Shown here one piece after another: positions 3,882-55,420 of a DNA stretch of 64,000 bases. The stretch is from Octopus vulgaris (Eukaryota), in assembly GCA_951406725.2 (NCBI GenBank), contig OX597822.1, positions 49,414,001 to 49,478,000 of the forward strand, read 5' to 3'. Numbering within the stretch: the first letter of the stretch is position 1; every line of letters starts with the position of its first letter. A program made the position numbers and the translations under genes. The notes under the pieces were generated by a model. It saw only the letters and a list, made by a program, of their open reading frames with translations. It made no database searches and was not told the origin of the DNA.

Positions 3882-4769
3882 CAATGTATGTGTACAAATA
3901 ATACGGAAAAATAGTTACCAGGTTAGCAAAAAAAAAGTATCAAGTATGTAACATCCTACCAATAAAGGTAGAAATTCCCGTGTTTAGTGAAATGTTTTTA
4001 ATTAACATAGATAAATAAAGAAATGGAGTTAAACGGAGTTGTTATTAAAATCTTTATTCTTCCGACATATATTTCGAAGAAAACATTGGCATTATTCCAG
4101 AGTGAATAAAATGATGTAAAGCAACGCAATTTTTACATCGGGGAAAAAAAGAGAAACAAAACACTAGCCATTTTAACCGAAAGTGATTACTGCATGATAA
4201 AAGGAACGCTGGTAAGTTATTGTTTTTTTTAAACCGTTAATAGATTTAACGTCATAGGTATTTTATAGAAAGAGAAACACATTTATCGGTCGTAAAGCGA
4301 TGTTGGGGACAAACAAACATACAAATACATGCATGCATACATACATACATACATACATACAGTCTACGGAACGTGCTCTGGCATGGGCGGTGTGGATAGT
4401 GGTGATGGGATATCCACGTAGGGCGAAGTGGCGAGCAATGAGTTGAGACTGAGTCTCAAAGTCATGGTCGTCACTGCAAAGCCTACGTAGACGAGGCAAT
4501 TGGGAATAGGGGACGGAAAGCTTGGTGTGTTTAGGGTGGGAGGAAGAGAAGTTGATGTATGAGTGTGAGTCTGTGTGTTTGTAGTGGATGGAGCTGGTGA
4601 GAGTGGAGTGATGAATGCTGACTGAAATGTCAAGAAATGAGACAAAGGTATCAGAGATAGTGCAAGGCAGGATGAAAAGATTTGATAAAAGAGAGGATGG
4701 AGTCTAGATGTTCGCGGGAGAGTGAGGTCACACCGATAGTCATCAATATAACGGGCATATAGTTCGGGA

Positions 4770-4818
<49 letters not shown>

Positions 4819-5314
4819 GTGAGTGTTCCACTCACGATCTAGCGATCGTGATTTCAAATCACGTGGTAGACATTTCCCTGTTCGGACTGCCTCAATTCGG
4901 TGGAGGGAGTGAGCTAAGGCGTGGCACGAACATTTGATCAATCTAAACAAATCATACATCCGCTTCGATGAGATAGTCCTTGATATATATATATATATAG
5001 AGAGAGGGAGATACTTAAACATATTGGATGTAAGTCTACGCCTTGTTTCATGCGTAGCTGGGCTGTACGTATGTATGTATGCATGCATGTATGTATTTAT
5101 ACACATTTATATATAAATACATACATGCATTAGCCACTACGCAATCTTTTTCTCTCCTTGTTTCTCTCCCTATTTTTTCTGTGTCCCTTTCTATAGAAGA
5201 GCGTAGGCTCGAAACGTAAAATACTTTTTCTATTCCTGAGCGTTATACTAATACATCTGTTTGTTTTGTACACCATCTGTCTTCGTCTTTTGTTTTTTTT
5301 CGTAAACGCTCCCT
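3621..5314 (-). mobile_element. Penelope-like element remnants: RT fragment between two inverted ~185-bp pLTR-like copies
   Basis: Minus-strand 4364-4770 encodes PELYARYIDD...FLDISV...TDSHSYINFSSSHP...SQLPRLRRLCSDD, a PLE RT/thumb region with frameshifts. 3621-3805 and 5131-5314 are inverted copies, each abutting a TA/CA microsatellite. Confidence 0.75.
5188..5221 (+). ncRNA. Minimal variant hammerhead-ribozyme-like motif (PLE pLTR)
   Basis: ttt-CTATAGA-A-GAGC gtag GCTC-GAAA-CG-TA-aaa. The inverted copy near 3715-3750 has core TTGTAGA. Both cores deviate from CUGANGA. Confidence 0.45.
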
Positions 5315-8946: not shown

Positions 8947-10110
8947 TGAGCTATGAATTAAGTCTACCCTGAAATGTAAATACGATCGGAATGAAACAAA
9001 TTTCACGTATATGGAAAAAGTTCCCGAAATTAACTTGATCCTGAGAGGGAAATAACTTTTGCCTTTCGATTATACAGTTACTTGACCAACAAAAAATGTT
9101 TCTATTTTCGCTTTTGTTAAACACAATATTTTAATAATTTAGAAATATTTTTAGGGGAATATGATTTCAAAAATGTAAGTTGTTTGTATAATAAGTATTT
9201 ATATTTTAGCTTTAAACAGACAATATTTTAATGGTTTAAAAAATTCTTTTTGGCATAAATATTTCGTAGAAGACCCGTTTGTAACCTCAGTGTAAAATAA
9301 TTTTTTCCATAGGCTTTTTTCGAGTGCATTCAACGTATCTCACTTCTAAAGATTTGGCTGCTATTTCTAACACGCCCTGATACCACGTAACTGCTTTTTG
9401 CGATAAATGACCTGAAATACTTGTTATATGGTAGCAGGGTGTGCAAAATATAATAGCCAAATCTTTCCTTTTCTGGAGAAAGGAGCTGCTTACGCCTGAT
9501 TTCAATGTCACATTCGTTAAAAAACCCCACGAAACAAAACTCCGTTGCTGGGAAACTCAGACTTTCCCGGTGGCCCAATGGATCATGGGTAGTCTAGTGT
9601 AGTATATAAATGTATATAAGTAATGTTTATCGCCACATCAACATGGCGGTTCGACGTTACTACCGTTTTTAACGCCAGGAAGAGCCTCTAGTATAAATTG
9701 CAAGCAGGGAAGCGAACTCTACCATCTTGTAGCTGTCGGGCTATTTGTGCCCATCATCAGTGGTGAACACCCGGCCGCCAGAGATAACAGGAATTCACTC
9801 CAGCTCACAATATATAGAAAATCAAGTGACAATCAGTCACTGACCTTGCCTAACCAGCTACTTTTCCTGTTGATTTGTTGACCTTACAAAAGCTTTCGAA
9901 TTTCTGAGTATAATCTGAAATTTTTCACGATCGTTCATGCATTTGACACAGATGTGAAAAGTCTCATTCAGTGCGATGGCTCTTCCTCAGAAACTGTCAG
10001 CATTCTTATTGAAGTGAAGAGGATTCTCTGATTTTTTCCGAACTTGTTCAGCATTTTCTTCGAGGTTATGTTGAAGCAGGTTCTTAGAAATGTCAACCGA
10101 TGGTACTTAC

Positions 10111-10339
10111 GGCGAGCTGGCAGAAACGTTAGTACGCCGGGCGAAATGCTAAGCGGTATTTCGTCCGCCGCTACGTTCTGAGTTCAAATTCCGCCGAGAT
10201 CGACTTTGCCTTTCATCCTTTCTGGGTCGATACATTAAGTACCATTTACGCACTGGGGTCGATATAATCGACTTAATCCGTTTGTCTGTCCTTGTTTGTC
10301 CTCTCTGTGTTTAGCCCCTTGTGGGTAGTAAAAGAAATA
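10111..10339 (+). mobile_element. SINE-B, full-length monomer with Tx1-type tail and 9-bp TSD
   Basis: Head with A box (TGGCAGAAACG) and B box (GAGTTCAAATTCC); core GCCTTTCATCCTTT..GGGTCGATA..TTAAGTACC resembling the MetaSINE-type domain; tail ends GAAATA. TSD GGTACTTAC at 10102-10110 and 10340-10348. Confidence 0.9.
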
Positions 10340-10819
10340 GGTACTTACAAGATCAGATGGGAAACTGCTCTCAATTGATTGTTAAAATGAAAATATGCAA
10401 GTACTCAGCAAAAGTTGTTTCTAGATGATGCAACACGGGCAACATACTCGGTGGAACAATTGTAACTTATCTTGGACAGCTTTAAAGAGCCTTCTCAAGA
10501 CGTTGATTTTAACATCAGCTTCAAGAATACGAAAGTACTAGGAAAACTTATTGCGTATTGTCCTACCATTACCATCGACAACTACTGCAATCTGGAAGTA
10601 ATCCATGAATTCTCATACCTCAGCACCACCATCATAGACATCTATAGAGTGTGAGATCAAATGACATACTAAAGGGCTCTTCAGATATAGCCAGATGAAC
10701 GTCTAAGAGAGTATAAAATAACAAATGTAGTATGAAGTGCTTGCGTCCTCAGCACATGCTTTACGGTCGTGATCTACAAAGTTTCGACATCAAACATGAA
10801 CAGCATCTCAACGCCTTCC

Positions 10820-11078
10820 ACCACAAGGGGTTAAATACAGAGAGGACAGACAAGGACAGACAAACGGATTAAGTCGATTATATCGACCCCGGTGCGTAAC
10901 TGGTACTTAATTTATCGACCCCGAAAGGTTGAAAGGCAAAGTCGACCTCGGCAGAATTTGAACTCAGAACGTAGCGGCGGACGAAATACCGCTTAGCATT
11001 TCGCCCGGCGTGCTAACGTTTCTGCCAGCTCGCCGTAAGTACCATCGGTTAACATTCCTAAGAACCTGCTTCAACATA
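10820..11078 (-). repeat. Inverted duplicate of SINE-B plus ~43 bp of its upstream flank
   Basis: Reverse complement of 10068-10324, including non-SINE flank ATGTTGAAGCAGGTTCTTAG..ACCGATGGTACTTAC. Confidence 0.9.
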
Positions 11079-18238: not shown

Positions 18239-18566
18239 TGTATATATGTATGTATCCATATATTTGTATGTATGTACGTATATTAATATTTTGCTTAGGC
18301 ATAGTGATAGTAACCCAGTATTAGAATTGAATGTACATATGTTTCAGAATAAAGCGTTAGGTGAGTACAGAACATGAAAGTAATTAAAAGACAAACGAAC
18401 TAGAAACACCGGGGAAATTATAGATGATGCACAGCTATTGAGGTCTGAGTGCACCACACCTACTACCAGAAACAGATGTAAGCTGAAGTTTATTGCATAA
18501 TTTCCCGTTCCTTTGTCATTTTTCTACTTTCATGTACAAGTGCATAAACATACGCGCGCAAGTGTA

Positions 18567-18637
<71 letters not shown>

Positions 18638-18742
18638 CAAGATGTAACCACATATGAACACAAGCACAAAATATATGTATATATATCTCTTCAATTGTGC
18701 ACATTCAAAGAATAAAATTCATTTTCAGCATTAAATAATATT

Positions 18743-19328
18743 TATTTCTTTATTGCTCTCAGTGGGGCTAAACATAGAGGGAACAAACAAGGACAGACAA
18801 AGGGATTAAGTCGATTATATTCATCCCAGTGCGTGACTGGTACTTATTTATCGAACTCGAAATCATGAAAGGCCAAGTCTACGGAATTTGAACTCAGAAC
18901 GTAGCGGCAGACGAAATACCTATTTCTTTACTACCCACAAGGGGATAAACACAGAGAGGACAAACAATGACAGACAAACAGATTAAGTCGATTATATCGA
19001 AACCAGTGTGTAACTAGTACGTATTTAATCGACCCCGGAAGGATGAAAGGCAAAGTCGACCTCGGCGGAATTTGATCTCAGAACGTAGCGGCAGATGAAA
19101 AACCTATTTCTATACTACCCACAAGGGGCTAAACACAGAGAGGACAAACGGACTAAGTCGAGTATATCGACCCCAGTGCATAACTGGTACTTATTTAATC
19201 GACCCCGAAAGGATGAAAGGCAAAGTCGACCTCGACGGAATTTGAACTCAGAACGTAGCGACAGATGAAATACGGCTACGCATTTCGCCCGGCGTGCTAA
19301 CGTTTCTGCCAGCCCACCGCCTTACCAG
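18743..19328 (-). mobile_element. SINE-B head-to-tail trimer (single head) with 11-bp TSD
   Basis: Tail ends at 18743, 18921 and 19105. Internal junctions read GAAATA|GGTATTTC and GAAATA|GGTTTTTC. TSD TAAATAATATT at 18732-18742 and 19329-19339. Confidence 0.9.
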
Positions 19329-19413
19329 TAAATAATATTAAATGTGTTCTTATTTATTATATCTCTTTATTATTATAAGATGGGAGTACTGAAGGGGGAG
19401 AAAAACGAAAAGG

Positions 19414-19415
<2 letters not shown>

Positions 19416-19493
<78 letters not shown>

Positions 19494-19555
19494 GTATAAA
19501 TCATATATATATATATATATAATTTATATATATATGTATGTATATATATATAATT

Positions 19556-19648
<93 letters not shown>

Positions 19649-19687
19649 TTTATATATATATAATTTTTTTTTTTTGTTATCTGTTTC

Positions 19688-19735
<48 letters not shown>
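19416..19735. repeat. (TA)n-rich tract
   Basis: Directly visible. Similar tracts at 23940-24300, 28570-28700 and 34200-34760. Confidence 0.95.
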
Positions 19736-19739
<4 letters not shown>

Positions 19740-20699
19740 CATAACAACAAATTTCCAATATTCCAGTAATAGAAAAAAGGTAGGTAGTTAATTAGAAATA
19801 AAATTGGAAGTCTCTGAATTGATCAAGGTATTAAAATACTTCTATTATTTCTATTTTACATTTATGTGGTTTTTTTATATAGTTATTTTCTTTTGAAATT
19901 TTATATCTCAATTGGTCAATAACAACGTCGTTGGCTAAAGGTTTCTAACGAAATCAATTACTGGTTCATTGCATTTCTGATTGTGATAAGAACAAGCGAG
20001 TTTATTTAATTCGATGCAAAATAAATATCTGAAGGATTTTCACTTGTAAGACACTGGATTTTTCGATGACGTTTATATCCTTCACTGATATATACCAAAA
20101 ACCACACACATTTTGTTCAACAGACTTCTTCAATTTCCCTTTACAAAATTCCACTAAATAAGTATTGATAATAATGAGAATTGAGATCGAATCTAGAACC
20201 ATGAGGTTGCAAAGCAAACTTCTTACCTACACATCTATACTAGAAATCATTTTATCTATTTATTTATTGAAATTTTAAATTTTCTTATTTGAAAGTATAT
20301 TTCTTTTCAAAGTCTCTCTTTGAGGTTTTGAATGAAAAACGATATACTGAAACGAACTTCTGAATTACCTTCTTTGTTTTTCTTTTTAAGATTCAATTTC
20401 ATTTATAAGTAAATCAGTTTATTTAAATTTGCTTCAGAATTACATTAAATAAATTGTTTTCCGTATGAGTAAATAAATACAGTAAAATAAACATGAGATA
20501 AAAAGTAAGTTATATAAATTTAAGTAAACCAAATAATAAAAATCCGATATTTATTCAGTAAACAGATTTTCGAAACTTTATTTTCATCATATTACAATTC
20601 CAGTTTCAATATTTGGGCTACGGCCATACTGTTGCACCTCTATCAAGAGTATTTATCGATTATATTGACTCCCATCTCTCGTGCTACATATTCATTGGT

Positions 20700-21060
20700 G
20701 TCAGTGAAGGTATGTCACTTAGTGGTTAGGACATTCGGCTCATAATTATGAGACTATGAGATCAATTCCTGCATCAGTTGTTGATCTATATCTTGCATCA
20801 TTGAGCAACGTTTTTTTTTAAAATTCATGTTCCTTCAGTCTACCCAGGTATAATGAGTACTAACAGTTTGCTGATGCTGGTTTCCGTCCTCCATCTGTCG
20901 CATTCTGTATGCGACCTCTTGAATCAAGGGTGACAAAAACAAGAGTGTGTCCTCATCGGTGGCTACATAGGAACATCATGAAATTAACTCAACCTAGGGT
21001 GATGTTATTAAGCCATTGTCACTCGTGAGTGACAGGCGCTGTACTTGCGAATCTGGTGTA
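20700..21060 (+). mobile_element. Old tRNA-derived SINE-like remnant
   Basis: A-box-like CACTTAGTGGTTAGG and B-box-like GAGATCAATTCC; highly diverged. Confidence 0.35.
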
Positions 21061-21229
21061 GTATGCATAGTAAAAAACAACAATGAAGCATTATATAATA
21101 GTACTTAACTTACAAGACTAATAAGGTGTGGCTTCATAACATGCCACTGGAAGACGAGGAACCGCGTCATATGAACACACACACACACACATATATATAT
21201 ATGTATATATATTTATATATATATATAAT

Positions 21230-22630
21230 CAAAGCAATCAACAAGATATCAAGAAGTGATGCAGTACGACCATTTTAAGCGACTCCATTGAATTGAACAA
21301 GGCAAACATTACTTCAATTTAAATGCAGTGCTATCATCAGCTGCACAAATGAATAGAATTTTAATGAGTTGGACACATTAATATATTTTTCTCAAATACT
21401 TTAACAGCGGAAGAAGATTGAAGAAATTCATGTTGTCGCTATTGTAGCTAAGAATAAACTACACTTCCAAGAATGGCATGAATCCCACAGGGGTCATAGC
21501 TTGTAAAGGATTGTGGTTAGTTTCTAATTTATTTGTCTTTTAATCAACTACTAAATCTAAGCCTAGAGGACTGTGTCTGTTTAGAATGAAGGGCAAGAGT
21601 GAGTTGACAGCTCAAGACAAGGTATGGTCATAAATATTATCATATGTATCCCTTTTTTCAGGGAAAGAAGAACACATTAGGAGTAATAAATTGGATATAG
21701 AGTAACTGTCTATTAAATGAGGCTGGATAGGGGAACACTCTAAATCATGATGTTAATAACCACTTAAAGGGGTAAGACGCTAATAAAACCTAGGATGTTA
21801 ATACAGGGGACATCAACTTAGAAATTAAAAAAATATGATGGGATATGACCTAGCGGATAGAACCGAACTCTTACAACTAAATGAACCAAAGATTAACCTC
21901 AAGGACCATAAAAAGAACTTTTAGGATAATCCTGCTGTTAGACAGATTTGCCCGACTAAGTCCGATATAGGTTGGATACTTTACTACCCCTAATAATCCC
22001 TAACCTATCTCTCAAATTATGGGTTGATACGGATGAAATGATATATTGGTTCAAATACATTGAAATACGTAATTATTCGTTTATTCAGTTTGATTATTAA
22101 CAGTTCGTATTCTAGTATATTTCTTATTCTTCTTAACAAATCCCTAATTTTCGCAAAATCCTCTCTCTTTTAACTAGGGATAAAATTGACATTCTTTTAG
22201 CCCGGAAGACTATCATAGAATTTGAGGGTAAGCTAGGGATGAGTTCCGATACCCTTGATAATTTCGATATAGCTATGGGCTCTAATGATTCGGTGGAAAT
22301 TACTAACCTAGTTAGTGCGTATCTCTTAAAGTGCCTTAATAGCAAAATCCCTGAGTTGCAGGGAGGTTTATATATAGACGATGCTCTCTTTATTATCCCT
22401 AGTGATGATAAAAAATCGGTCATAGAAAGAATGTGAAAAAGAATTAGAATTTTTTTAAGAGCTTCAACTTAGGAATTATGTTTGAATATGGCACACACGT
22501 GGAAAATTTCTCGGACACTACATTAGACATTAATTCAATATTGTACCACCCCTGAAGGAAACCGGCTGAAGTTACGAGGTATTGAACAAATCATCAAATT
22601 ACCCCGCTAATATATTAAAATCAGTAGTGA
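21230..22630 (+). mobile_element. Penelope-like element remnant (Naiad-like RT) with inverted pLTR
   Basis: Plus strand gives KDHKKNF*DNPAVRQICPTKSDIG (~21900) and FDIAMGSNDSVEITNLV...GLYIDD (22239-22436). 21230-21740 is an oppositely oriented 3' repeat that recurs at 35600-36120. Confidence 0.75.
21260..21345 (-). ncRNA. Type I hammerhead-ribozyme-like motif with long stem II
   Basis: Minus strand: TGCAG-CTGATGA-long hairpin-TAAAA(degenerate GAAA)-TGGTCG-TA-CTGCA. Stem I is perfect. Confidence 0.55.
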
Positions 22631-22639
22631 TGTGTTTGT

Positions 22640-23274
22640 AGGGGCTAAACACAGAGGACAAACAAGGACAGACAAACGGATTAAGTCGATTATATCGACC
22701 CCAGTGCGTAACTGGTACTTAATTTATCGATCACGAAAGGATGAAAGGCAAAGTCGACCTCGGCAGAATTTGAACTCACAACGTAGCGGCAGACGAAATA
22801 CCGCTAAGCACTTCGCCCGGCATTCTAACGATTCTGCCAGCTCGCCACCTTCAAAATATATTTCTTTACTGCCAACACGGGGCTAAACATAGAGGGAACA
22901 AACAATGACAGACTAAGAGATTAAGTCGATTACATCGACCCCAGTGTGAAACTGTTACTTTATTTATCGACCCCGAAAGGATGAAAGGTAAAGTCGACCT
23001 CGGCAGAATTTGAATTTAGAACGTAACGGTAGACGAAATACCTATTTCTTTATTACCCACAAGGGGCTAAACACAGAGGGGACAAACAAGGACAGACATA
23101 GGTATTAAGTCGATTACATCGACCCCAGTTCGTAACTGGTACTTAATTTATCGACCCCGAAAGGATGAAAGGCAAAGTCGACCTCGGCGGAATTTGAACT
23201 CACAACGTAACGCAGACGAAATACCGCTAAGCATTTCGCCCGGCGTGCTAACGTTTCTGCCAGCTCGCCGCCTT
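22640..23274 (-). mobile_element. SINE-B monomer (22640-22850) plus head-to-tail dimer (22859-23274)
   Basis: Tail ends at 22859 and 23043, 184 bp apart. The internal junction is GAAATA|GGTATTTCG. Confidence 0.9.
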
Positions 23275-23942
23275 AAATGAGGAGTATATTGACGTAGGTT
23301 AATGTGGGGCTGAGGTTTTAGTACGTGTAATCGTATTGTGTACGTGAGAAAAGTGTGGGAGTGAGGAGTTGGGAGCACACGCACACACAGACTCTCTCTC
23401 ATGTACACACATGCACATACCCACACACACACACACTTTCACAGACATGCACAAACGCACACACGCACACACACACACATACACATAGACACATACAGAC
23501 CCCCTACACATACACATGCGATTCAGTTCCGCAGTTTTCGCCTATAAATTTTCATTTAGAGAGTACGTGATTTTAGCAGAAAAAGCTGAAGACATAGTGT
23601 AGTACAAATGAACTCGAATTTATGTGGTTGCAAAGCAAAGTATAGGATGTTGTGACAAAGGTAGCGCCTACTCTACTATTCGAAATAATCACTGTTGACA
23701 TAGAAACACACTCAGAAAGGATGAAAACGAAATCGAATGAACACTTTGCTGAAGGAAACGAAAACCATCATTGTCAATTTAGAAATAAAAGTTACAACTC
23801 TTGATTTCGCAACAAATATTTTGGGCATATGATTATGAAACCATCCTACTTTTCTGTACTTAGTCATGCCTACTCTGATATTTACACACACACACACACA
23901 CACAAAATACGTACATATAGTATACATAAACATATGTACATT

Positions 23943-23974
<32 letters not shown>

Positions 23975-23992
23975 TATATGTATATACATATG

Positions 23993-24041
<49 letters not shown>

Positions 24042-24127
24042 ATGTTTGTATATATAGATATATATACATATATATATGTATATATATATATACGTATATA
24101 TATATATGTTTATATATATCTACTTAC

Positions 24128-24167
<40 letters not shown>

Positions 24168-24249
24168 TTGTATATATAGATATATATACATATATATATG
24201 TATATATATATATACGTATATATATATATGTTTATATATATCTACTTAC

Positions 24250-24307
<58 letters not shown>

Positions 24308-25134
24308 GTAAGTACCAAGTTATATGCGCTTACACACACATGTTCACTACAGCTGTGAACAGCCAAGGGCGAATCTTAGAGACGACTGTCTATTTTTGAT
24401 ATATTAAAATTTATCCATCAACTCTATTGAACATATCGAGTTCCATATCAGTTACTGTTTGCAAAGCGTATAATGTTTACTCTACTATATGCGAGAACTT
24501 TACACCAGAACTGCAAGAAAAGCCGTATGCTGCTGCAAGCAATGTTGGTACTCCAGCATGGTTACATCCTTTGGCTAAAACAAATAAAAGTATTTTTCAA
24601 AACTCATACATTATGATATACAAGAAACATACACGTGTGTGCACACTCACTTACCCCACCTCGCATATATGTAATGGTTTAAAGGATAGATATACATAAT
24701 TTTAAGTACGTACATGTGGTCAGTGAAAGTATGCTAATCAAATTAGAAAGAACGTTCTGCGTTCGATGTGACATTGCGGTGCCTTAATCATGTGCCTTAA
24801 GACCAATAATGTTCCTAAGATTGACCTTGTCCAGTGTTTTCATTGTGAATGAAATTTTGTAATCGAGTGGATCTATAGATGACCATCGAGTATGTGAGTG
24901 TGTACGTCTGTACATCTGCTCAATATCTTTTGAAAATATAAGAGTGTGAAAAACATTAAATGATATATATTTCCAATAAAAATAAGTTATGATATTTTTT
25001 TCCGCTCGAGTTATACAAATAATCCCTCGTTAATCTCCCGTCCTAGACAGTTACTCAAAATAATACATAGTTGCGACATACAGCAATAGCTTGTACGATG
25101 AAACAACTTCTTCATATATATATACACACACACG

Positions 25135-25240
<106 letters not shown>

Positions 25241-26242
25241 TGTGTGTGTGTGTACGTGTGGGTGAGTGGGGGTGGAAATACGTTCAAAGGAGACCAATTC
25301 AAACTTTTTGAGAGGTCCAAAAAGAGAGAAAGAATGATTTCTAATAAAGATTCATCATATTCATAAAAAAACAGCCAGAGCAAGTAATAAGTATATAAAA
25401 ATAGTAGTTGAAAAATATCGCTATAGGTATAAAAATGCCATAAACGATTATAGGAAAATGAAGGAGAAAAAGAAGTAGAATGAAAATTAGATTTAATACA
25501 AAATAGGATTCAATACATAAGCGCGTTTCAAAGGACAATACAAATATGTAAGAAAAAAATAATAATCATTGTAATTATAATTGAATTTATGCATTGTCAT
25601 TTACATGAGTGTGAGGAATTTTTGTAAGGTCATCAAAAAAGTTTAATAAAGTAAAGTAAATTAAATAAGATACAAATGAGGTAATAGGGAAAAAATCGGA
25701 TATTTATAAGCAAGTTGTAAAAGGAAAAAATAACAGTAGTAACAATAGTAAGAGAGAGGAAACAGAAAAAAAAAAGACATATCAATGTGTATGCACGTCT
25801 ATAAGTGCGGAAAACTATAACATTAAGAATAAAAATCTAACGGATATATTTATAAAAATGGTAACAGGTCGAGACATAGTATAATAAACAGGGCCATGTG
25901 TGTATAGTAGAATATAACGTAACAGGTGGACTAGTAGAAAAGAATCATAGAGAGTTAGATATTTACATATTAATATTATTGAAAAATGAAAAAAATATAT
26001 ATATTTTACACGAGGCTAAAAGTTGATAGGCAAGACTATGTTTGAAAAAAGTTACCATATTTAAGTAAAAATCTACATACATGCTGAGAAAAAAAAACCC
26101 AAAGCGAACTTAAGGAAAAATACGTCGATTGTGAGAGTTCATGTATGTATCTATAAACAAGCATGAAATCTAATTGTATTTGCTGGTTCAAATCTCGACA
26201 TGCACTGCAAGAAAGAGCAATGCTACCATGACTACTTCAATA

Positions 26243-26832
26243 ATCCTTTCTACTATAGGCACAAGGCCTGGATTTTTGTGGGGAGGGGGGACAATCGATT
26301 ACATCGACCCCAGTAATTGACTGGTACTTAATTTATCGACCCCCGAAAGGATGAAAGGCAAAGTCGAACTTGGCGGAATTTGAATTCAGAACGTAACGAC
26401 AGACAAAATACCTATTTCTTTACTACCCACAAGGAGCTAAACACAGAGAGGACAAACAAGGACAGCCAAACGGATTAAGTCGATTACATCGACCCCAGTG
26501 CATAACTGGTACTTAATTTATCGACCCCGAAAGGATGAAAGGCAAAGTCGACCTTGGCGGAATTTGAATTCAGAACGTAACGACAGACGAAATACCTATT
26601 TCTTTACTACCCACAAGGGGCTAAACACAGAGAGGACAAACAAGGACAGACAAACGGATTAAGTCGATTATATTGGCCCCAGTGCATAACTGGTACTTAA
26701 TTTATCGACCCCGAAAGTATGAAAGGCAAAGTCGACCTTTGCGGAATTTGAACTCAGAACGTAACGGCAGACAAAATACCGCTAAGAATTTCGGCCGGCG
26801 TGCTAACGTTTCTGCCAGCTCGCCGCCTTACC
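26243..26832 (-). mobile_element. SINE-B trimer: two Tx1-tailed units nested in a SINE-B with a different tail; 12-bp TSD
   Basis: Tx1-type tails end at 26413 and 26597 (184-bp period). The 3'-most unit ends CAGGCCTTGTGCCTATAGTAGAAAGG. TSD ACTACTTCAATA at 26231-26242 and 26833-26844. Confidence 0.9.
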
Positions 26833-26854
26833 ACTACTTCAATATTGATCATCC

Positions 26855-27750
<896 letters not shown>

Positions 27751-41000: not shown

Positions 41001-41758
41001 CTAGCAGTATCGCCCGGCGTTGCTCAGGTTTGTAAGGGAAATAACTATAAAGCATTTTTAGAGAGTTATAGCCAAAAAATAGAAAAAAAATGATGGTAAA
41101 TTTTTTTGAGAGTTAAAACAGGTGGAGTTGCGTCCCCTAGACGGTCTGTGGTTTGGGTTTCTCATTCTCGACCCCATGTCGAATTTATCGTTTTTTTTCA
41201 GAACTGGGGGAACTTTTCAAATTTTTCGCTGCGTTAGTTTTGAATTATGACATTGGGCTATGTGTGTGTTAAGTTTCATCAGAATCGGTTGAAAGCCGTG
41301 GTCAGAGTGAGGGTACGAGAAAACAGACACACAGAAACACGCACAGACAAACTGCCGTTTATATAGAGAGAGATAGCAGTATCGCCCGGCGTTGCTCAGG
41401 TTTGTAAGGGAAATAACTATAAAGCATTTTTAGAGAGTTATAGCCAAAAAATAGCAAAAAAATGGAAAAAAAATGATGGTAAATTTTTTTTGAGAGTTAA
41501 AACAGGTGGAGTTGCGTCCCCTAGACGATCTGTGGTTTGGGTTTCTCATTCTCGACCCCATGTCGAATTTATCGATTTTTTTTCAGAACTGGGGGAACTT
41601 TTCAAAATTTTCGCTGCGTTAGTTTTGAATTATGACATTGGGCTATGTGTGTGTCAAGTTTCATCAGAATCGGTTGAAAGCCGTGGTCAGAGTGAGGGTA
41701 CGAGAAAACAGACACACAGAAACACGCACAGACAAACTGCCGTTTATATAGAGAGAGA
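41001..41758 (-). mobile_element. Non-autonomous Helitron, head-to-tail dimer
   Basis: Near-identical units 41001-41373 and 41374-41758. The minus strand begins TCTCTCTCTATATAAACGGC and ends GAGCAACGCCGGGCGATACTGCTAG. It sits between A and T in a TA tract. Confidence 0.85.
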
Positions 41759-41919
41759 TATATATATATATCTTTAAAAATGTATAGAGGTAGAATGTTA
41801 ATTTTATTAATAGCTCTTTTCTATCTACATATTCCATTTTAGTAATATTTTTGATAAGTTGTCTCAAAAACCGAAACATGTAGAACAGAACCAAAATATT
41901 CTTCTTTTAACGTATACTA

Positions 41920-47826: not shown

Positions 47827-47902
47827 GCGCAGGAGTGGCTGTATAGGCGCAGGAGTGGCTGTATAGGCGCAGGGGTGGCTGTATAGGCGCAGGAGTGGCT
47901 GT
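47827..47902 (+). repeat. 20-bp tandem repeat of the SINE-A 5' end
   Basis: (GCGCAGGAGTGGCTGTATAG)x3 runs directly into the SINE-A head. Confidence 0.95.
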
Positions 47903-48312
47903 GTGGTAAGTAGCTTGCTAACCTCACTGACAGAAGAGTGACTTTGCCTACCGTACTACGGTTTGGACGCGTTTTCTTCCCGGTAAGAGTTTTGCTGTGT
48001 TGTTAATTGTTGAATTCCTACTACTGAAAATTTGCCTTTAAACGTTGCTGAACTGTCTTGTTCTCCGGTTTTACCGGGAAATAATTGAATAATTTCTTAC
48101 CGTTGAACTGTTAGCCACTGTGGCTTTTTATTTACGTGACTATATATAGTCCCGCCAGACTATTTTCGTGCCCCTCCCCCGAATGGGGGTGGGAATTGGA
48201 ATTTTTGAACTGCTTTTTTGAACTACTTTGGAAGAAAAACTTTCTATAGGTTTCCCAGTTTTGTGGGAAACCAATATTCGTAATTTTTGTGTTGTCTAAT
48301 TTCAACAGAATA

Positions 48313-49713
48313 ATGTCTGTTGAAATTATTCACGAAAGTAGTGCTCTTGAGGAGAGCAATGTTAAAAAATTTTCTGAGGTAGCCGCAGTGGCTACCGAGA
48401 AGATTGACATCGATGTCAACCAGCTCGTCGAGCTATTTAAAAGAATGCAAGAGGAGGGTGGTGATGTTAAAATATCACCCTCCGCCAGTATCGTGGAGAC
48501 CGAGAAGCGGACCGTAGTGTTTAAAACTTTCTGTCCACAAAGCAGAAGGTTCAAACACTTTGAAAAAAGCACCATCGAGAAATGCCTGTCCCCGATTTGG
48601 AAGGACATCGTGTACGTCGCCAGGGGACGGGCATATGGCACTGTGGATGTCCGCTTCTCGGGGAAGAAATGGCCCGCGGGCATTCTGTGAACCCCCTAAA
48701 AACCAAGGAGGTGGTACTTTTTCCAAGCTATAGGGGACGCAGGTCGTCCCGGGTCAGGATTGTAGAAGCCCCGCCGGACGTAGATCCGGTAGAGGTAGTG
48801 GCCGCCCTGTTATATAAAAGGGCGGACAAAATAAAAATACTAGAAGTAACATGCTCTACCCCTCGATTTTGGCTCGGGCGTAACATTAATATATTAATTC
48901 AAGGAACAGCGGAGGACCTGCAGCTCCTTCCTGAGAGGGTGCTCGTGGGCGAGAACGTAGCCCTCAGGGTACAGGTCGAAGGCCGAAAACCCACCTGTTA
49001 CGCCTGCAACAAAAAGGGCCACATTCGTGTAGACTGTCCAGACAAGCAAAAGAAACCGCAGACACCAGGCCCCTCAGATAATAAAAAAGTCCCTACCCTT
49101 GCAAACACACCTACCCCTACAAAAACAAAAAATCCCACTCCTGCTGTTACGGTGCCAACCCCAAAACAGACTGAAGAAAAAACCCAGCCCTCGCACTCAC
49201 AAACCCCTACACTATTAAAACCTCCCACCCCCTAAAAACTGCGGCGCCTACCGAACAAACTATTGCTACCACAGACGATACCATGGAGGTATCAGAGGGG
49301 GATTTACACCAGTTCGTAAAAGAATTCGTGCAGCATCCCCGTCCACATCCCCTACAAAAAATAATAAAAACAAAGACACACCACAGACACGGAAAAAAAA
49401 ATCCCGCTCAACTGGCCCAGAAAAAGAAGACAAAAAAGAAAATGAACTCATATTAATTGAATTCGACACACAAGACAAATACATAAACGATATTGTGGTT
49501 CAGCATCAGTCAGCAAGACTGTACAACAAATACAAAGATCGAAATAGACACGCGTGGATTGCGGAAACAACGTTCAAACAATTAAAAGACAGACACCCAA
49601 ACGCCATCCGGCATATCGCGAACTTGCCGGACTATCTGAAGAAAGAGGAGAAAGAAGGGGCCCACAAACGTGTGGTGAGGTCGGCCCCCACCTCTCCAAC
49701 GAAATGTAAGTAG
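48313..49713 (+). pseudogene. Tx1 ORF1 (gag-like zinc knuckle), split by three apparent 1-bp deletions
   Basis: CX2CX4HX4C motif CYACNKKGHIRVDC and a P/T/K-rich linker. Frames connect by -1 shifts plausibly at G4 (48660), C5 (49228) and G5 (49297). Restored length ~467 aa. Confidence 0.8.
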
Positions 49714-49729
49714 AACCTTTACTTTTGTA

Positions 49730-52700
49730 ATGGCTTCGCTTAACCTTGGTTGTTTAAATGTGCGTGGTCTGAGTTCGAAGTGGAAGCAGGCTTGTTTCCT
49801 CGACGACCTCAGATCACATGATATACATGTGATGGTTGCTACAGAGACCAAGCTGGACAGCCTACAAACCTTCTCGCCTCTCCTGAATGGCTACGAGAAA
49901 ATCATGTCTCCTGGCCAGACCGGAGGGCGAGGGGGCGTAGTGGTACTGATCCGTAAAGACTTGGCTCTACAGACAAGTACAGTCTATGTAGACCCAGAAG
50001 GTGGGCTGGTCGTCCTTGATGTGACATACAGCAGTAAGGCCTTCAGGTTAATCGGACTCTATGCACCTTGTGCTAGAGGTTTCCAAACTGATTTTTATCG
50101 GCGCCTAGAGGGCTTTCTCGTGACGTCGAAGACTTTAGTGATATTAGGGGACTTTAATGCTATCGTTGACGTACACATCGATAGCGTTGGCTCGATCTAT
50201 AGGAAAGTGAACTCACGTCTCGTGGATCTGCTTAAGCGGTTTCAGCTAGCAGATCGTTACAGACTTGACCATCCGAACGTCCCAGAGTGGACCTGGATGA
50301 GTGGCGACGGAAGGTTCAAGTCTTATCTAGACAGGATAGTGATAAGAACTAGAGATAAGTCTAGTTTTAGTTGTCCACAGCTCGTCCAGGTGCCCTATAC
50401 TGACCATAGAATGGTCACGTGTAGACTGGACATAGATAGCACACTTAAGATAGGAACCGGCTACTGGAAGCTGAACAAGTCTATTTTGACACGCGAGGCA
50501 TACCGTAGCCGGATTAAGGTGTTAGTGCAGAGGGCGTTAACCGGAGCCGTGGTTAATAACCGGTGGTGGTTCACCCTCAAAAGAGCCATTCGATTCGAGT
50601 CCATTAGATTTAGTAAACAACTAAGACTAGATAGGGCTAGAATAGAAGGGCAACTAGTTAAGAACTTAGAGGAGGCGTTGAGGTTGGGCTCTGCATCTCA
50701 CATTTTAGCGGCGAGAACGGCATTAGACCGTCACCTCAAAACCAAACATGAGGGATGTAGAGTCCGGGCTAAAGTACGAGCATTGGGCCGTGAGGGAATT
50801 AATGTTGCCGGATGGGCCCGTACGATAGAAACACAGCGTGGAAACGATGCCACAATTGGGTCTCTTGTTGATGAAAATGGATGCACGATCAAGAAGCGGG
50901 ACGAGATGTGTGAGGCACTCCACAAGCACTTCGCCGAGTTGTTCGGGAGGTGCGGGACGCTGGATCATGGTGAGGCCCTTAGGGACTTCCTGTCTGGTGG
51001 CCCGCGCCTCTCGACACGAGAGGCTGAGTGCTGTGAAGGGCCAATCACAGCCGAGGAAGTAATCGAGGTGTTGGGCAAGTGCCCCGGGGAGAAGTCGCCG
51101 GGTCTCGATGGTCTGCCCTATGAATTTTATAGAAGTATGCCAAACTTGTTCGGGCACCTGCTGGCTAGCGTCTACGCCAACTGGCAGCAGAATGGGAGAA
51201 TTCCCAAGTCTGCGAGCCGGGAGGCGGTGACCTTGATCAGGAAGGACCCGAACAAGGGGGACGAGATAGGGAACTTCAGGCCCATAACTCTGTTAAACAC
51301 AGAGTTAAAGATTCTGGCCAAGGTGCTAGCAAAAAGGTTGGCGCGGGTCGTGGACAAACTTGTCGGGGAAGCGCAAACGTGCGCTATCCCCGGCAGAACG
51401 ATCCACGACAATCTCCACCTTATACGCTACTCCTTAGAGAGGGTGGGGAAGCTTTCTGGCGCAGGGGGAGCACTGGTACATTTAGACCAGTCCAAAGCAT
51501 TTGATAGGGTCGACCATCGGTACCTGGCGGCGGTCCTCGGAGAGGCTGGCCTAGGCCCGACCTTTCGAGGTTGGATCGCTGCTTTGTATAGCGACATCGA
51601 GTCTGTAGTCAAGGTGAACGGTTCCTTTTCGAAGCCGTTCAGGATCGAGCGTTCAGTTCGTCAAGGGTGTCCCCTGTCCTCGCTCCTATACGTATTGGCT
51701 CTTGAGCCTTTGCTGCGGAAGTTGGAGGCACTAGGGGGCGCGCCGCATGATCTATGGTGTGGAAGAGGAGCTACGGCGTATGCGGATGACACCTCCATCA
51801 TCGTGGCAGACGAAGGCCAGCTTCCAGTGGTGGAAGAGGCCATAAAAAGCTACGAGGCGGTGGCAGGAGCAAAGGTTAACAAGGACAAGTCGGTCGGTTT
51901 GCAACTCGGCACCTGGAGGGGCAAGCCGATGCCGTCCAATAACGTCGTAGGGCGTTGGACGGAAGGTCCTGTTAAGCTGCTCGGAGTCTGGTTCGGGCCA
52001 GACCTCCAGATTGAGAAAAATTGGAGTGAGGTGGCCAACAAGGTGACCGCTCTAACCCAGACCTGGTCTGGGCGGGCGTTATCCCTGCTAGGGAAGGCGG
52101 AGGTGGTGCAGATGTTTATAGCATCAGTAATCACCTACCGTCTGACCGTGGTGCCTTGCCCCGATTTGTGGCTGAACAAGTTGGAGAGAATCCTTTTCCG
52201 ATTTTTGTGGAAAGGAGGAAAGCCACTTGTAAAGCGCTCTGTCTGCTGCCAGAAACCGCTAAAGGGTGGGCTAGGGATGCCTTGGCTGAGGATGCGAAAA
52301 CTCGCGTTAAGGTTGAGGCACCTCTGGCTTTACCTGGATGGAGAGCAGGTGTGGTCGCCGCACGTCCGGTTCTACCTTCCCCAGTTAACATCCCTAACGG
52401 ACATCGGTGCATGGATCAAGCGGAGACCTAAACTGAGCGAATGGCATTTGGAGTGCCGTCAGGCGCTCCAGCTACTATCTCGGGTGGGCAACGCCGGCAA
52501 CAGGAGTTCCACCACGGATTTCTATAGCGGGTTAGTGGAGATTAAGTCCGAAGACGCCTTGGGGGAGACCCTGGGCTACGATGAAAATCAGTTGATCAAC
52601 CTGTTCCGGAGGACGTTCGGGCCGGGGTATCTGGATAATTACCAGAAATCCCTAGCCTGGCAGTGTTTCCGTGCGGCTTTACCTGTTCGCGACAAGCTGT

Positions 52701-53131
52701 CAAGGCACGGTAGTGCCGTCTCGCCGACATGCCCGCGATGTGAGCAGGATAGGGAGACCGTCTTGCACGCATTCGTGGAGTGTCCGGAGTTATCGGGACT
52801 GATAGCTTTTGTAGAACAACTGTTGTCAGTGATGGGAAGAGTACAGCTATCAGCTGAGTCTATCATCGAGATTGTGCCGCCCCCTTTCCTTAACAGGGAA
52901 AGAAAGGCTTGTTTTTTCTGTGTAGTAGCCATACTGAAAGAAACAGTATGGAAGACGCGTACGAAAGGTATAGTGACAGGCACCTTTGTCTCCGGCCAGG
53001 GGTTGATTAACTTTTTTAGTTACCACCTCAGTAGCAAAATCAGGCTGGAGAAGAGGTGTCTGTCACGAGATATGTTTGTGAAAAGATGGAAGCCTGTGGC
53101 ATACAAGATGGGTATGTTTGGCACCAGGTAA
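49730..53131 (+). CDS. ORF2: APE endonuclease, reverse transcriptase and C-terminal zinc finger (1133 aa)
   Basis: APE motifs LNVRGL, ETK, YAP, GDFN, LDR, TDH; linker YWKLN; RT motifs KSPGLDG, RPITLLN, LDQSKAFDRV, VRQGCPLS, YADD; zinc finger CPRC..ETVLHAFVEC. Uninterrupted. Confidence 0.97.
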   Translation: MASLNLGCLNVRGLSSKWKQACFLDDLRSHDIHVMVATETKLDSLQTFSPLLNGYEKIMSPGQTGGRGGVVVLIRKDLALQTSTVYVDPEGGLVVLDVTYSSKAFRLIGLYAPCARGFQTDFYRRLEGFLVTSKTLVILGDFNAIVDVHIDSVGSIYRKVNSRLVDLLKRFQLADRYRLDHPNVPEWTWMSGDGRFKSYLDRIVIRTRDKSSFSCPQLVQVPYTDHRMVTCRLDIDSTLKIGTGYWKLNKSILTREAYRSRIKVLVQRALTGAVVNNRWWFTLKRAIRFESIRFSKQLRLDRARIEGQLVKNLEEALRLGSASHILAARTALDRHLKTKHEGCRVRAKVRALGREGINVAGWARTIETQRGNDATIGSLVDENGCTIKKRDEMCEALHKHFAELFGRCGTLDHGEALRDFLSGGPRLSTREAECCEGPITAEEVIEVLGKCPGEKSPGLDGLPYEFYRSMPNLFGHLLASVYANWQQNGRIPKSASREAVTLIRKDPNKGDEIGNFRPITLLNTELKILAKVLAKRLARVVDKLVGEAQTCAIPGRTIHDNLHLIRYSLERVGKLSGAGGALVHLDQSKAFDRVDHRYLAAVLGEAGLGPTFRGWIAALYSDIESVVKVNGSFSKPFRIERSVRQGCPLSSLLYVLALEPLLRKLEALGGAPHDLWCGRGATAYADDTSIIVADEGQLPVVEEAIKSYEAVAGAKVNKDKSVGLQLGTWRGKPMPSNNVVGRWTEGPVKLLGVWFGPDLQIEKNWSEVANKVTALTQTWSGRALSLLGKAEVVQMFIASVITYRLTVVPCPDLWLNKLERILFRFLWKGGKPLVKRSVCCQKPLKGGLGMPWLRMRKLALRLRHLWLYLDGEQVWSPHVRFYLPQLTSLTDIGAWIKRRPKLSEWHLECRQALQLLSRVGNAGNRSSTTDFYSGLVEIKSEDALGETLGYDENQLINLFRRTFGPGYLDNYQKSLAWQCFRAALPVRDKLSRHGSAVSPTCPRCEQDRETVLHAFVECPELSGLIAFVEQLLSVMGRVQLSAESIIEIVPPPFLNRERKACFFCVVAILKETVWKTRTKGIVTGTFVSGQGLINFFSYHLSSKIRLEKRCLSRDMFVKRWKPVAYKMGMFGTR

Positions 53132-55100
53132 GTGTGACCGGATCAGAAAGTAAAGGTTCTACCCGGATGGCTGGGTGTCCGTCCTTCGACATGATCATTA
53201 ATATTTTTAAACATTGCCTTCGTAAAATTCATTGTTTATAATCTTATCCGTAATTTCATTCGAAAATTGTAACTGTGTTAAGCTACTTCACCCTTTATAT
53301 TTGTCTGTCCTTGTTTGTCCCCTCTTTGTAAATGCCTAAATGGCAAATTATATGAAATAAAGTAGCTTGCTAACCAACCACATGGTTCCGGGTTCAGTCC
53401 CACTGCGTGGCATCTTGGGCAAGTGTCTTCTGCTATAGCCCCGGGTCGACCAATGCCTTGTGAGTGGATTTGGTAGACGGAAACTGAAAGAAGCCTGTCG
53501 TATATATGTATATATATATAAGTGTGTGTGTATATGTTTGTGTGTCTGTGTTTGTCCCCCTAGCATTGCTTGGCAACCGATGCTGGTGTGTTTATGTCCC
53601 CGTAACTTAGTGGTTCGGCAAAAGAGACCGATAGAATAAGTACTGGGCTTACAAAGAATAAGTCCCGGGGTCGATTTGCTCGACTAAAGGCGGTGCTCCA
53701 GCATGGCCGCAGTCAAATGACTGAAACAAGTAAAAGAGTAAAGAGTAAGAGTATTCGATTCGTTCACCCATATGAATTATGTCTCTTAACGCATTTTAAA
53801 TTATTTCTTCAGATATAAATTATACTGGCCAGATATTATTCCTAACTTTTTCTCTCTATATAAAAATGTTTGTGACTTGATGAAGCAAGCTCCAGTTGAC
53901 TATTTTCTGCTGATGAGGCTTAATATAGGTTTTCTATTGCTTACAAAGATGAGCGTTTTATCTCTCTAAAGATTAAATACGATAGATTAATTCTTAAGTT
54001 CTTGAAAATGTTCCACCTTTTCTTTGCGAGTCGGGGTGGGGGGGTTCTGTGTATTCTTGCCAAATCAAAGCGAAATTTCAGTGTTTGAGTATGTCATTCA
54101 GTATATTACATTTTAAACATTTATATTAAATTACACATCTTCCCCCTTTTTTTTCTCCTCCTACAGCAACAATAGCAACTGTTGCTGCTGCTGCTGTAGC
54201 TTCTCCTCCTTCTCCTCCTCCTCCTCCTCCTCCTCCTCCTCCTCCTACTACTACTACTACTACTACTACTAGATAATATTCTCTTAGATACGCTATGTTA
54301 AAAAGCCTGTAATGCGCTGTTGGAACATTCTTGATGGGGGTCCTGTTAAATAAGATTTGAACAGGGGTTAAATAAGTCTTTACTCCCTCTGCCTCACATT
54401 CTCTATCGTTTGTCCCTTCATTCCCCCATTTCCCTATCCCTCTTTCCATTTTATCTCCTCTTCCTTTCCCTATTCACTCCAGTATATTCATTTTATCGCT
54501 CTGTTCTTTTCGCCCCTCCTTCTCTTTCCTTCCTTCCTCATCTACGCATTTCCCTGCCTCCTTGTCCCTTTCTATGTCACACAGAAACATGCATATAACT
54601 TAAACATATTCATTATTACTCTGCAATTTTTACATGTATATAATGAAAGTTTTTTAAAATCTAAATTAAACGGAGATGAAAAGTAATTTCGACATACGTG
54701 CTAAAACAAAGATAATACATCTTTACACACATGCTTTTTTTTCTTTTGGTTACACTTATGTAAACGTTCTAAATTATCGATCTTCTCTCTGTCCCACTTT
54801 TCTCCTCTCCTATCCTAAAATCTCGTCTATTTTATAGCAGAAAACTACTCATGCAGTTTCTTTTAATTCTTTTCATATGATCATTGTATAGCTTTTGCGT
54901 GATCGATACAGCGAGAAACAAGCTTTGAAATTGCTAGGACACATTTTTCATTAGTAAGCATAATTAGTCAGGCTTTAATTTTCTCATTTAAAAGAGAATG
55001 AAAAAATCTAATAAAACTAATAAAATGATCAATTTACACCATCAGTCAGTTAAAAGAAGTACCATAAAATGAAGATCTAACTGTAATTAGCTAATTTTAC

Positions 55101-55195: not shown

Positions 55196-55223
55196 GTTAT
55201 TATTGTTATTATTATTATTATTG

Positions 55224-55420
55224 AGTCGACGAACTGGCATAACCGTTAGCACGCCGGGTAAAATGTTAAGTTGCATTTCATGTATCTTTACGTTCTGAGA
55301 TCAAATTCTGCTGAGATTAACTTTTCTTATCGTCGTCGATCGAATAAATACCAGTTGAGTTCTGGGGTCAATGTAATCGACTTATCCCCTTCCCCAACAT
55401 TCCTGACCTTATTATCACTA
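55224..55420 (+). mobile_element. Diverged SINE-B following (TTA)n (55100-55222)
   Basis: GAACTGGCATAACCGTTAGCACGCCGGG...GTTCTGAGATCAAATTC. Confidence 0.7.

Follow-up and report, generated by a model that had tools for sequence, protein, structure and literature searches.

A SINE of Octopus vulgaris in short single-headed arrays joined at one fixed site in its own head

The SINE and its arrays in the window

The window, the whole 64,000-nt stretch of Octopus vulgaris DNA that was analysed, is AT-rich and dense in microsatellites. It holds a SINE-like element of about 235 nt, which gives 21 BLAST hits within the window and forms three arrays, all on the minus strand (Table 1). Loci 1 and 3 consist of a head followed by three bodies and locus 2 of a head followed by two. 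Units are labelled by locus and order, L1u1 being the first unit of locus 1 and L3u3 the third unit of locus 3, and whole-array readings draw on these three arrays, all of them in the window.

Table 1. Coordinates of the SINE arrays, the lone copy and the candidate partner LINE (positions in the window)
Feature	Position	Strand	Remarks
Lone full-length copy	10111..10339	+	9-bp TSD GGTACTTAC at 10102-10110 / 10340-10348
Locus 1 head (A-box-like)	19275..19324	-	young haplotype, from haplotype frequencies: T>G in hairpin 5' arm and G>C at first body base
L1u1 body	19105..19274	-	170 nt, 14-nt deletion
L1u2, headless	18921..19104	-	184 nt; GAAATA/GGTTTTT junction upstream
L1u3, headless	18743..18920	-	older subfamily states, 19/177 vs consensus
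Locus 1 outer TSD	5' copy 19329..19339; 3' copy 18732-18742		11 bp
Locus 2 head	23226..23275	-	0/49 vs consensus
Hairpin over the fixed site	23214..23241	-	12 bp, 4-nt loop; 3' arm begins at the junction base 23225
L2u1 body	23043..23225	-	183 nt, 9/183 vs consensus
L2u2, headless	22859..23042	-	older subfamily, 21/184 vs consensus
Separate headed copy	22640..22851	-	3'-truncated, 7 nt behind the locus 2 tail
Locus 3 head	26781..26830	-	2/49 vs consensus
L3u1 body	26597..26780	-	184 nt
L3u2, headless	26413..26596	-	184 nt
L3u3, headless	26243..26412	-	type-2 tail not ending in GAAATA
Locus 3 outer TSD	5' copy 26833..26844; 3' copy 26231-26242		12 bp
Full-length L1/Tx1-type LINE, candidate partner	47923..53359	+	ORF1 in three frames with CCHC knuckle; open ORF2 49679-53131, 1150 aa
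LINE TSD	47908-47922 / 53360-53374		15 bp (16 with one shared C)
LINE 3' end common to the SINE type-1 tail	53300..53359	+	pyrimidine tract, small stem-loop, terminal GAAATA

All five internal junctions lead from a tail ending in GAAATA into GGT at one single base. The junction motif GAAATAGGTWTTT has five matches in the window (18914-18926, 19098-19110, 23036-23048, 26406-26418 and 26590-26602, the second being the GGTTTTT variant), where 0.02 are expected, and five were reached in none of 100 shuffles. With one headed unit as BLAST query all five internal units begin at the identical query base, and the junction follows nt 47 counted from GGCGG, or nt 50 counted from the TAAGG start. In the window, this site follows five of the eight complete type-1 tail ends. 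An A-box-like TGGCAGAAACGTT is confined to the headed unit and a B-box-like GTTCAAATTC region is present in every body, both judged by eye. Within one locus the units with type-1 tails are 5-18% apart, and L3u3 carries a different, type-2 tail and is therefore not a copy of the type-1-tail unit. The outer TSD lies 4 nt outside the TAAGG start at locus 1 and 2 nt outside it at locus 3, and no clear outer TSD was found at locus 2. The first-pass annotation had described single-headed 184-bp arrays at three loci, joined about 45 nt into the head, with an A box in the 5'-most unit alone, diverged units and an outer TSD around two arrays. This description agrees with the present results once the position is narrowed to a single base and the unit length is relaxed, as 184 nt applies to four of the eight bodies, the remainder measuring 183, 178, 170 and 170 nt.

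The letters GG stand directly before the TAAGG start (TGGTAAGG) at 19325-19328 and 26831-26832, in both TSD-bracketed arrays, and are missing from the other copies; they represent a subfamily 5' extension or chance.

The TSD of the lone full-length copy equals the self-target at six of seven bases. The chance of such a target-like TSD is 0.0024 per site and, calculated post hoc, 0.007 for one in three non-array tail ends, of which the other two (loci 1 and 2) are unlike the target. The lone copy and its 5' flank belong to a 258-nt inverted duplication (95%; 10067-10324 and 10821-11078, with 496 nt between). The copy at 10821-11078 was considered as a second case of a target-like TSD and dismissed, being a 3'-truncated inverted duplicate of the 10111 copy and its flank and no independent insertion.

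Old relatives of the SINE with 71-83% identity are found at 26940-27715 and 55221-55384; the latter continues into an L3u3-like tail, so that the head and core are common to at least two tail types. Elsewhere in the window, a 385-bp unit forms a head-to-tail dimer (95% alike) within (AT)n at 41002-41760. Microsatellite-interrupted ORF fragments on the minus strand at 4263-4831 presumably resemble a Penelope-like RT/GIY-YIG element, and one piece of them scanned against Pfam gave no match.

In size and copy number (under 1 kb, interspersed, at least 100 copies) the element agrees with a tRNA-derived SINE, as judged from its length, its hits in the window and the contig counts given below; so do its LINE-shared 3' end, as at 53300-53359, and TSDs of 9, 11 and 12 bp. 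For a tRNA head at least 60% identity to a tRNA together with A and B boxes was asked for, the box-like motifs being those called by eye; ARAGORN returned no tRNA genes, and Rfam returned no match to the SINE head at E<=10. A self-cleaving ribozyme, as in retrozyme-like elements, was not indicated, since the 73 Rfam matches in 18500-27200 at E<=5, all under the gathering scores, included no ribozyme and nothing on the arrays. We take the SINE to resemble one of the octopus tRNA-derived SINE families of Ohshima and Okada 1994 (OK/OR families). These octopus SINEs are cited in passages of PMC3531059 and PMC4758252. The passages of PMC9795677 and PMC3747384 that were covered hold nothing about the SINE family, and its 17-nt core motif occurs in no paper text searched. 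A scan for the core motif gave no locus in viral contigs, none in genome contigs and one in metagenome contigs (L001), which at 1350-1570 holds a different tRNA-like element with the same 25-nt core as the SINE.

The junction in public contigs and the hairpin at the fixed site

Contigs from four of 24 public runs were aligned to the lone copy at 10111-10339: X1 (organism A), X3 (organism B), X13 (organism E) and X15 (organism A, guessed to be RNA and, as contigs, mute on expression, RNA ends and circles). At least 319,283 contigs aligned in X1, 311,067 in X3, 129,572 in X13 and 62,368 in X15, all being counts of contigs and not of copies. Loose ends before the junction base, 10155 in this copy, had the SINE tail as their consensus and amounted to at least 717 contigs in X1, 922 in X3 and 401 in X15; loose ends at 10110, the true 5' ends, amounted to at least 877, 1227 and 109, respectively. 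Conversely, the consensus behind the tail was GAAATAGGTATTTCGTC (at least 825, 1156 and 215 contigs). The junction is thus both the consensus continuation of the tail and a top loose-end site in the head in two of three organisms. By our own arithmetic, the letters G and C win a consensus at about 33% GC when roughly 15% or more of the ends are junction ends; the corresponding mark for a target of the SINEU type is more than 20% of flanks in one sequence, as given in passages of PMC4494074.

Joints in which the alignment goes back from the tail end gave a similar picture. Among the best 15 of 515 joints, those to the unit start were seen in at least 15, 16, 2 and 6 contigs (X1, X3, X13 and X15), those to the junction base 10155 in at least 13+4, 19+9, 2 and 11, and those to 10175, 20 nt behind the junction base, in at least 7, 8, 0 and 1; the last group probably represents the same junction with the alignment restarted past private changes. 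Two-headed self-insertions were not among the best 15 of 515 joints. In X13 the junction site was not among the best six loose-end positions, and the type-1 tail itself is rare in that run (tail/core depth 0.08 vs 0.58 and 0.50). At the site of the 10111 copy, one contig of organism E ends at 10110 and a second begins at 10380, and the joints listed include none between them. A frequent opposite-strand joint of the element start 10110 with body position 18 (10172) was also seen, in at least 30, 41 and 19 contigs of the three DNA runs.

The junction accordingly recurs genome-wide and is not a local feature. Contig counts give no distinction between separate insertion events and the copying of a multimeric master, and the high frequency of the junction would be readily accounted for if it had formed once or a few times, head-body-body loci then being transcribed by Pol III and retrotransposed whole. 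The unit ages discussed below bear on this explanation.

The SINE head forms a hairpin (12-bp stem, 4-nt loop) whose 3' arm begins with the junction base. Two variants would turn the loop-closing pair from U-G to G-C, and they occur at near-equal depth (8.5/8.4% in X1, 8.1/9.1% in X3, 12.8/14.1% in X15 and 0.3/0.6% in X13). The head of locus 1 carries both. From these observations we infer linkage of the two variants and a hairpin that is real at the RNA level; with linkage taken from frequencies, the variant is apparently compensatory. Predicted folding is not unusual for the whole unit (z -1.58) and modestly unusual for the 106-nt 5' part (z -2.20). A hairpin across the junction as such was also considered and found unsupported, the fold of the 51-nt junction region being not unusual (z 0.57).

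A junction placed precisely at the border of hairpin loop and arm, with an apparently compensatory variant, is what joining at the RNA level could produce. SINE RNA would be cut, or reverse transcription would stop, at the loop, and the reverse transcriptase would jump to a second SINE RNA at its 3' end, or a circular RNA would be copied, so that an array would arise in one event with one young head and one outer TSD and no added step. The R2 enzyme is capable of template jumping, as passages of PMC2718515 state. The hairpin could likewise act as a breakpoint for tandem duplication or unequal recombination of DNA. The tail and the 5' arm share a microhomology (GAAAT) that was examined in this connection and rejected; it is 6 nt out of register, would retain 6 nt that are absent at the junction and cannot yield it.

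Unit age, the single head and the origin of the arrays

The 3'-most type-1 units, L1u3 and L2u2, differ from the window consensus at 40 of 361 positions, as compared to 49 of 905 in the five upstream units (Fisher p=0.0006). They have thus diverged twice as much, and the polarity holds in both type-1 arrays. Three states found in both units have a higher frequency in organism E than in A (53 vs 21%, 91 vs 52% and 61 vs 19%), which marks the units as members of an older subfamily; part of the units' divergence is this subfamily difference from the window consensus. L1u3 and L2u2 are 16% apart and hence different old copies. Together with L3u3 and its other tail, they indicate that one junction originated independently at least three times, on different hosts.

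This polarity is difficult to reconcile with joining at the RNA level, which predicts units of a single age and, for a circle, identical units. Furthermore, L1u2 resembles the subfamily with C as first body base (linkage from frequencies only) and has G at its junction, as a host overhang would give, and the target-like TSD at 10102-10110 is left unexplained. Array formation from joined RNA therefore appears highly improbable to us.

Duplication at the DNA level meets a different difficulty. Adjacent units at the primary junctions are 12% and 17.5% apart and the third pair differs in tail; neighbours of different subfamilies or tails exclude plain duplication for the first junctions, and the breakpoint is always the 3' terminus defined by retrotransposition. 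Later additions are another matter. L3u2 and L3u3 are 5% apart over their first 117 nt and L3u1 and L3u2 5.4%, a CpG variant that is found in about 10% of copies and lies outside a 15-bp TSD is common to the three units of locus 3, and L1u1 groups with L1u2 (support 82/88) by three shared states, one of which parallels the young haplotype in frequency. Passages of PMC10702118 explain the same architecture, as seen in squamates, by unequal recombination. As the source of the arrays, duplication or recombination of DNA has very little probability in our judgement, and it may account for some third units.

The explanation by multimeric masters introduced above is in line with outer TSDs that bracket two entire arrays, with heads that match their 5' units and with the five states shared by L1u3 and L2u2, which group weakly by position (56/75). 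Against it, three of these five states are those of the older subfamily, the two units are 16% apart and locus 3 ends in another tail. Such unlike 3' units would call for a separate master for each array, and each master would need the same junction anew. Nor would such masters account for the target-like TSD found at the lone copy. Multimeric masters are consequently an unlikely origin for the arrays, while being compatible with self-insertion.

Unit trees were built from 10 full bodies without L3u3 and from 11 rows over the first 118 columns, and strongly supported branches numbered none of seven and none of eight, respectively. The first-pass annotation had named clustering by locus or by position as grounds for giving up self-insertion. 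Such clustering is present in part, in L1u1 with L1u2, in the shared variant of locus 3 and in the 3'-most pair, with no branch being strong; local conversion, recombination or multimer copying probably contributes.

The single head of each array raises the question of whose head it is. At locus 2 it has no difference from the consensus in 49 positions, which fits its own 5' unit (9/183, p=0.21) and not the 3' unit (21/184, p=0.009). The head of locus 1 shows the young haplotype over an old 3' unit, and by count it is not distinguishably younger (3/49 vs 19/177, p=0.42). Judged from these two heads, the incoming copy often appears to supply the single head, in which case the cDNA must pair with and overwrite the resident head, beyond annealing to a short overhang. 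The original proposal that the host head is kept, with cDNA annealing just to the overhang, is on this account not supported in that form, nor is the seeding of satellites, since no array seen exceeds three units. Its central idea of repeated target-primed insertion at one site in the element's own head was strengthened by the junction lying at the 3' terminus, by the older or other-tailed 3' units, by the genome-wide recurrence and by a candidate LINE.

A candidate partner LINE, probable self-insertion and related systems

The ORF2 of the LINE at 47923-53359 comprises endonuclease (APE), RT and zf-RVT domains, which places the element in the L1 group. Its best solved match is human L1 ORF2p (E=9e-67; R2 gave E=1e-19), and the best of its 31 homologs are without a family name. 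A search of viral contigs with ORF2 found no relative. We take the CCHC-bearing ORF1 to fit Tx1. The target-choice loop of the endonuclease has the L1 length and is shorter than that of the Tx1-graft entry, so that strict specificity of the Tx1L type is not supported. The last 60 nt of the LINE align to all four SINE tails tested, with scores of 52.5-65 compared to best scores of 34-41.5 in 1000 shuffles each, and the two kinds of tail differ in the stem-loop. These tails suggest that the SINE is probably moved by the enzyme of the nearby LINE. The LINE is present as a single copy, which interrupts the head of a second SINE family at GGT/AAGTAGC, not at GGTATTT, and the three sites of LINE and SINE share just a loose R-GTA core; the true partner may be a sister family of the window LINE. 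L1-Tx1 families are recorded as recently active in Octopus vulgaris in passages of PMC13282606.

The second SINE family, whose head is split by the LINE (47887-47922 and 53360-53745), contains an internal (AT)/(GT) microsatellite and has several copies in the window. About four 20-nt repeats of the family's 5' end lie head to tail at 47827-47902, immediately upstream of the inserted LINE.

We consider it likely, on balance, that the arrays arise by repeated target-primed reverse transcription of the SINE into one site of the heads of its own family. The junction is fixed and recurrent and lies exactly at the 3' terminus of the element and at the border of hairpin loop and 3' arm, the type-1 arrays show age polarity and the tail is shared with a LINE; beyond this we infer that the partner enzyme nicks the resident head, that reverse transcription is primed there on SINE RNA and that the 5' end is captured by homology. 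An L1/Tx1-type LINE protein would recognise the 3' end common to LINE and SINE, nick the bottom strand of a resident head at the border of loop and 3' arm, and copy SINE RNA there. Because the new cDNA matches its host, its far end would pair with the host overhang and head instead of being joined end-on. The outcome would be one head, often with the sequence of the newcomer, and an old body displaced downstream. Repeated rounds would yield a head followed by n bodies, with the oldest unit 3' and all within the original TSD of the host, and some third units may stem from later local recombination or conversion, just as some arrays may have been copied as multimers.

The three separate origins of the junction, the presence of the LINE itself in a SINE head and the target-like TSD of the lone copy make self-insertion the explanation that we favour, with reservations. 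Points against it are that the LINE of the window is one copy at the GGT/AAGTAGC site of another family, that the locus 3 units share a variant and L1u1 groups with L1u2, and that replacement of the head is an additional step.

One may further speculate that the RNA itself takes part in the choice of target. A run of four to five T, which is a Pol III stop, stands right behind the tail at two of the five junctions (19110 and 26418), and arrays could for this reason act as masters that read through the tail into GGTATTT. CpG decay or one substitution would make the T run, the transcript would end in a piece of its own head, and this piece would guide priming by pairing with the nicked strand of any resident head, thereby fixing the junction. 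Every self-insertion would add masters, array seeding would be self-reinforcing and the SINE would program its own target. An RNA ending in a head piece would also explain the G at which the junction of L1u2 starts. We rate this extension as doubtful.

The fixed junction in the element's own head is real and recurrent. If own-head targeting is true, it offers a path from dispersed SINEs to tandem arrays by retrotransposition rather than recombination, and the origin of SINE-derived satellites becomes testable, since junction position, age polarity and monomer/dimer alleles can be counted in assemblies. It would also amount to a safe-haven strategy: insertions of the mobile element go into dead relatives, whose promoter head may be overwritten. 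A candidate L1/Tx1-type partner is hereby named for a very abundant SINE family. For annotation, a large share of SINE tail ends would not mark independent genomic insertions flanked by regular TSDs, with consequences for copy counts and age profiles.

A literature search, covering the top-ranked hits in sources other than subscription papers and Repbase, turned up no description of a SINE that targets one fixed position within its own head, and the passages on octopus SINEs that were covered mention no such arrays. Added here are the site at the border of hairpin loop and 3' arm, the older or other-tailed 3' units, the LINE sharing the last 60 nt or so and GAAATA, and the target-like TSD in a lone copy. 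The closest architecture is that of the SINE-derived satellites (sSat) of squamates, e.g. sSat3Gja1 and sSat3Ati2 (Vassetzky, Kosushkin and Ryskov 2023, PMC10702118, in passages); the 179-nt unit of sSat3Ati2 consists of part of a head, a body and a LINE-derived region. In both systems tandem units below SINE length are accompanied by one longer terminal unit that reaches the SINE end, as in all three octopus arrays. The sSat are described in these passages as having from four to hundreds of homogenised, subtelomeric units, formed mainly by unequal recombination and with variable junctions in short loci. In contrast, the octopus SINE has two to three heterogeneous, dispersed units, one fixed 3'-terminal junction, age polarity and a candidate partner LINE; compared with four or more homogenised middle monomers, the longest array in the window has three units, 5-18% apart.

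A target preference of a SINE inside another repeat is documented for SINEU with Tx1-Mar in crocodilians and attributed there to a Tx1-clade LINE (Kojima 2015, PMC4494074, in passages). According to the same passages many Tx1-clade LINEs have a target preference and SINEU shares such a target. SINEU resembles the octopus SINE in having its target within a repeat and in forming tandem copies by sequential insertion. Its target is a foreign Mariner and its tandem copies are separated by TSDs, whereas the octopus SINE uses its own head and a second head is absent in the arrays seen. For the far end of the cDNA, R1 and R2 of Drosophila provide a parallel, as cDNA homologous to the upstream target anneals to it and yields precise 5' junctions (Stage and Eickbush 2009, PMC2718515, in passages). 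R1 also forms arrays through repeated insertion into a regenerated target, as described in that source. R1 and R2 are autonomous LINEs in 28S rDNA and depend on a host-gene target, whereas in the octopus SINE the element itself is the target.
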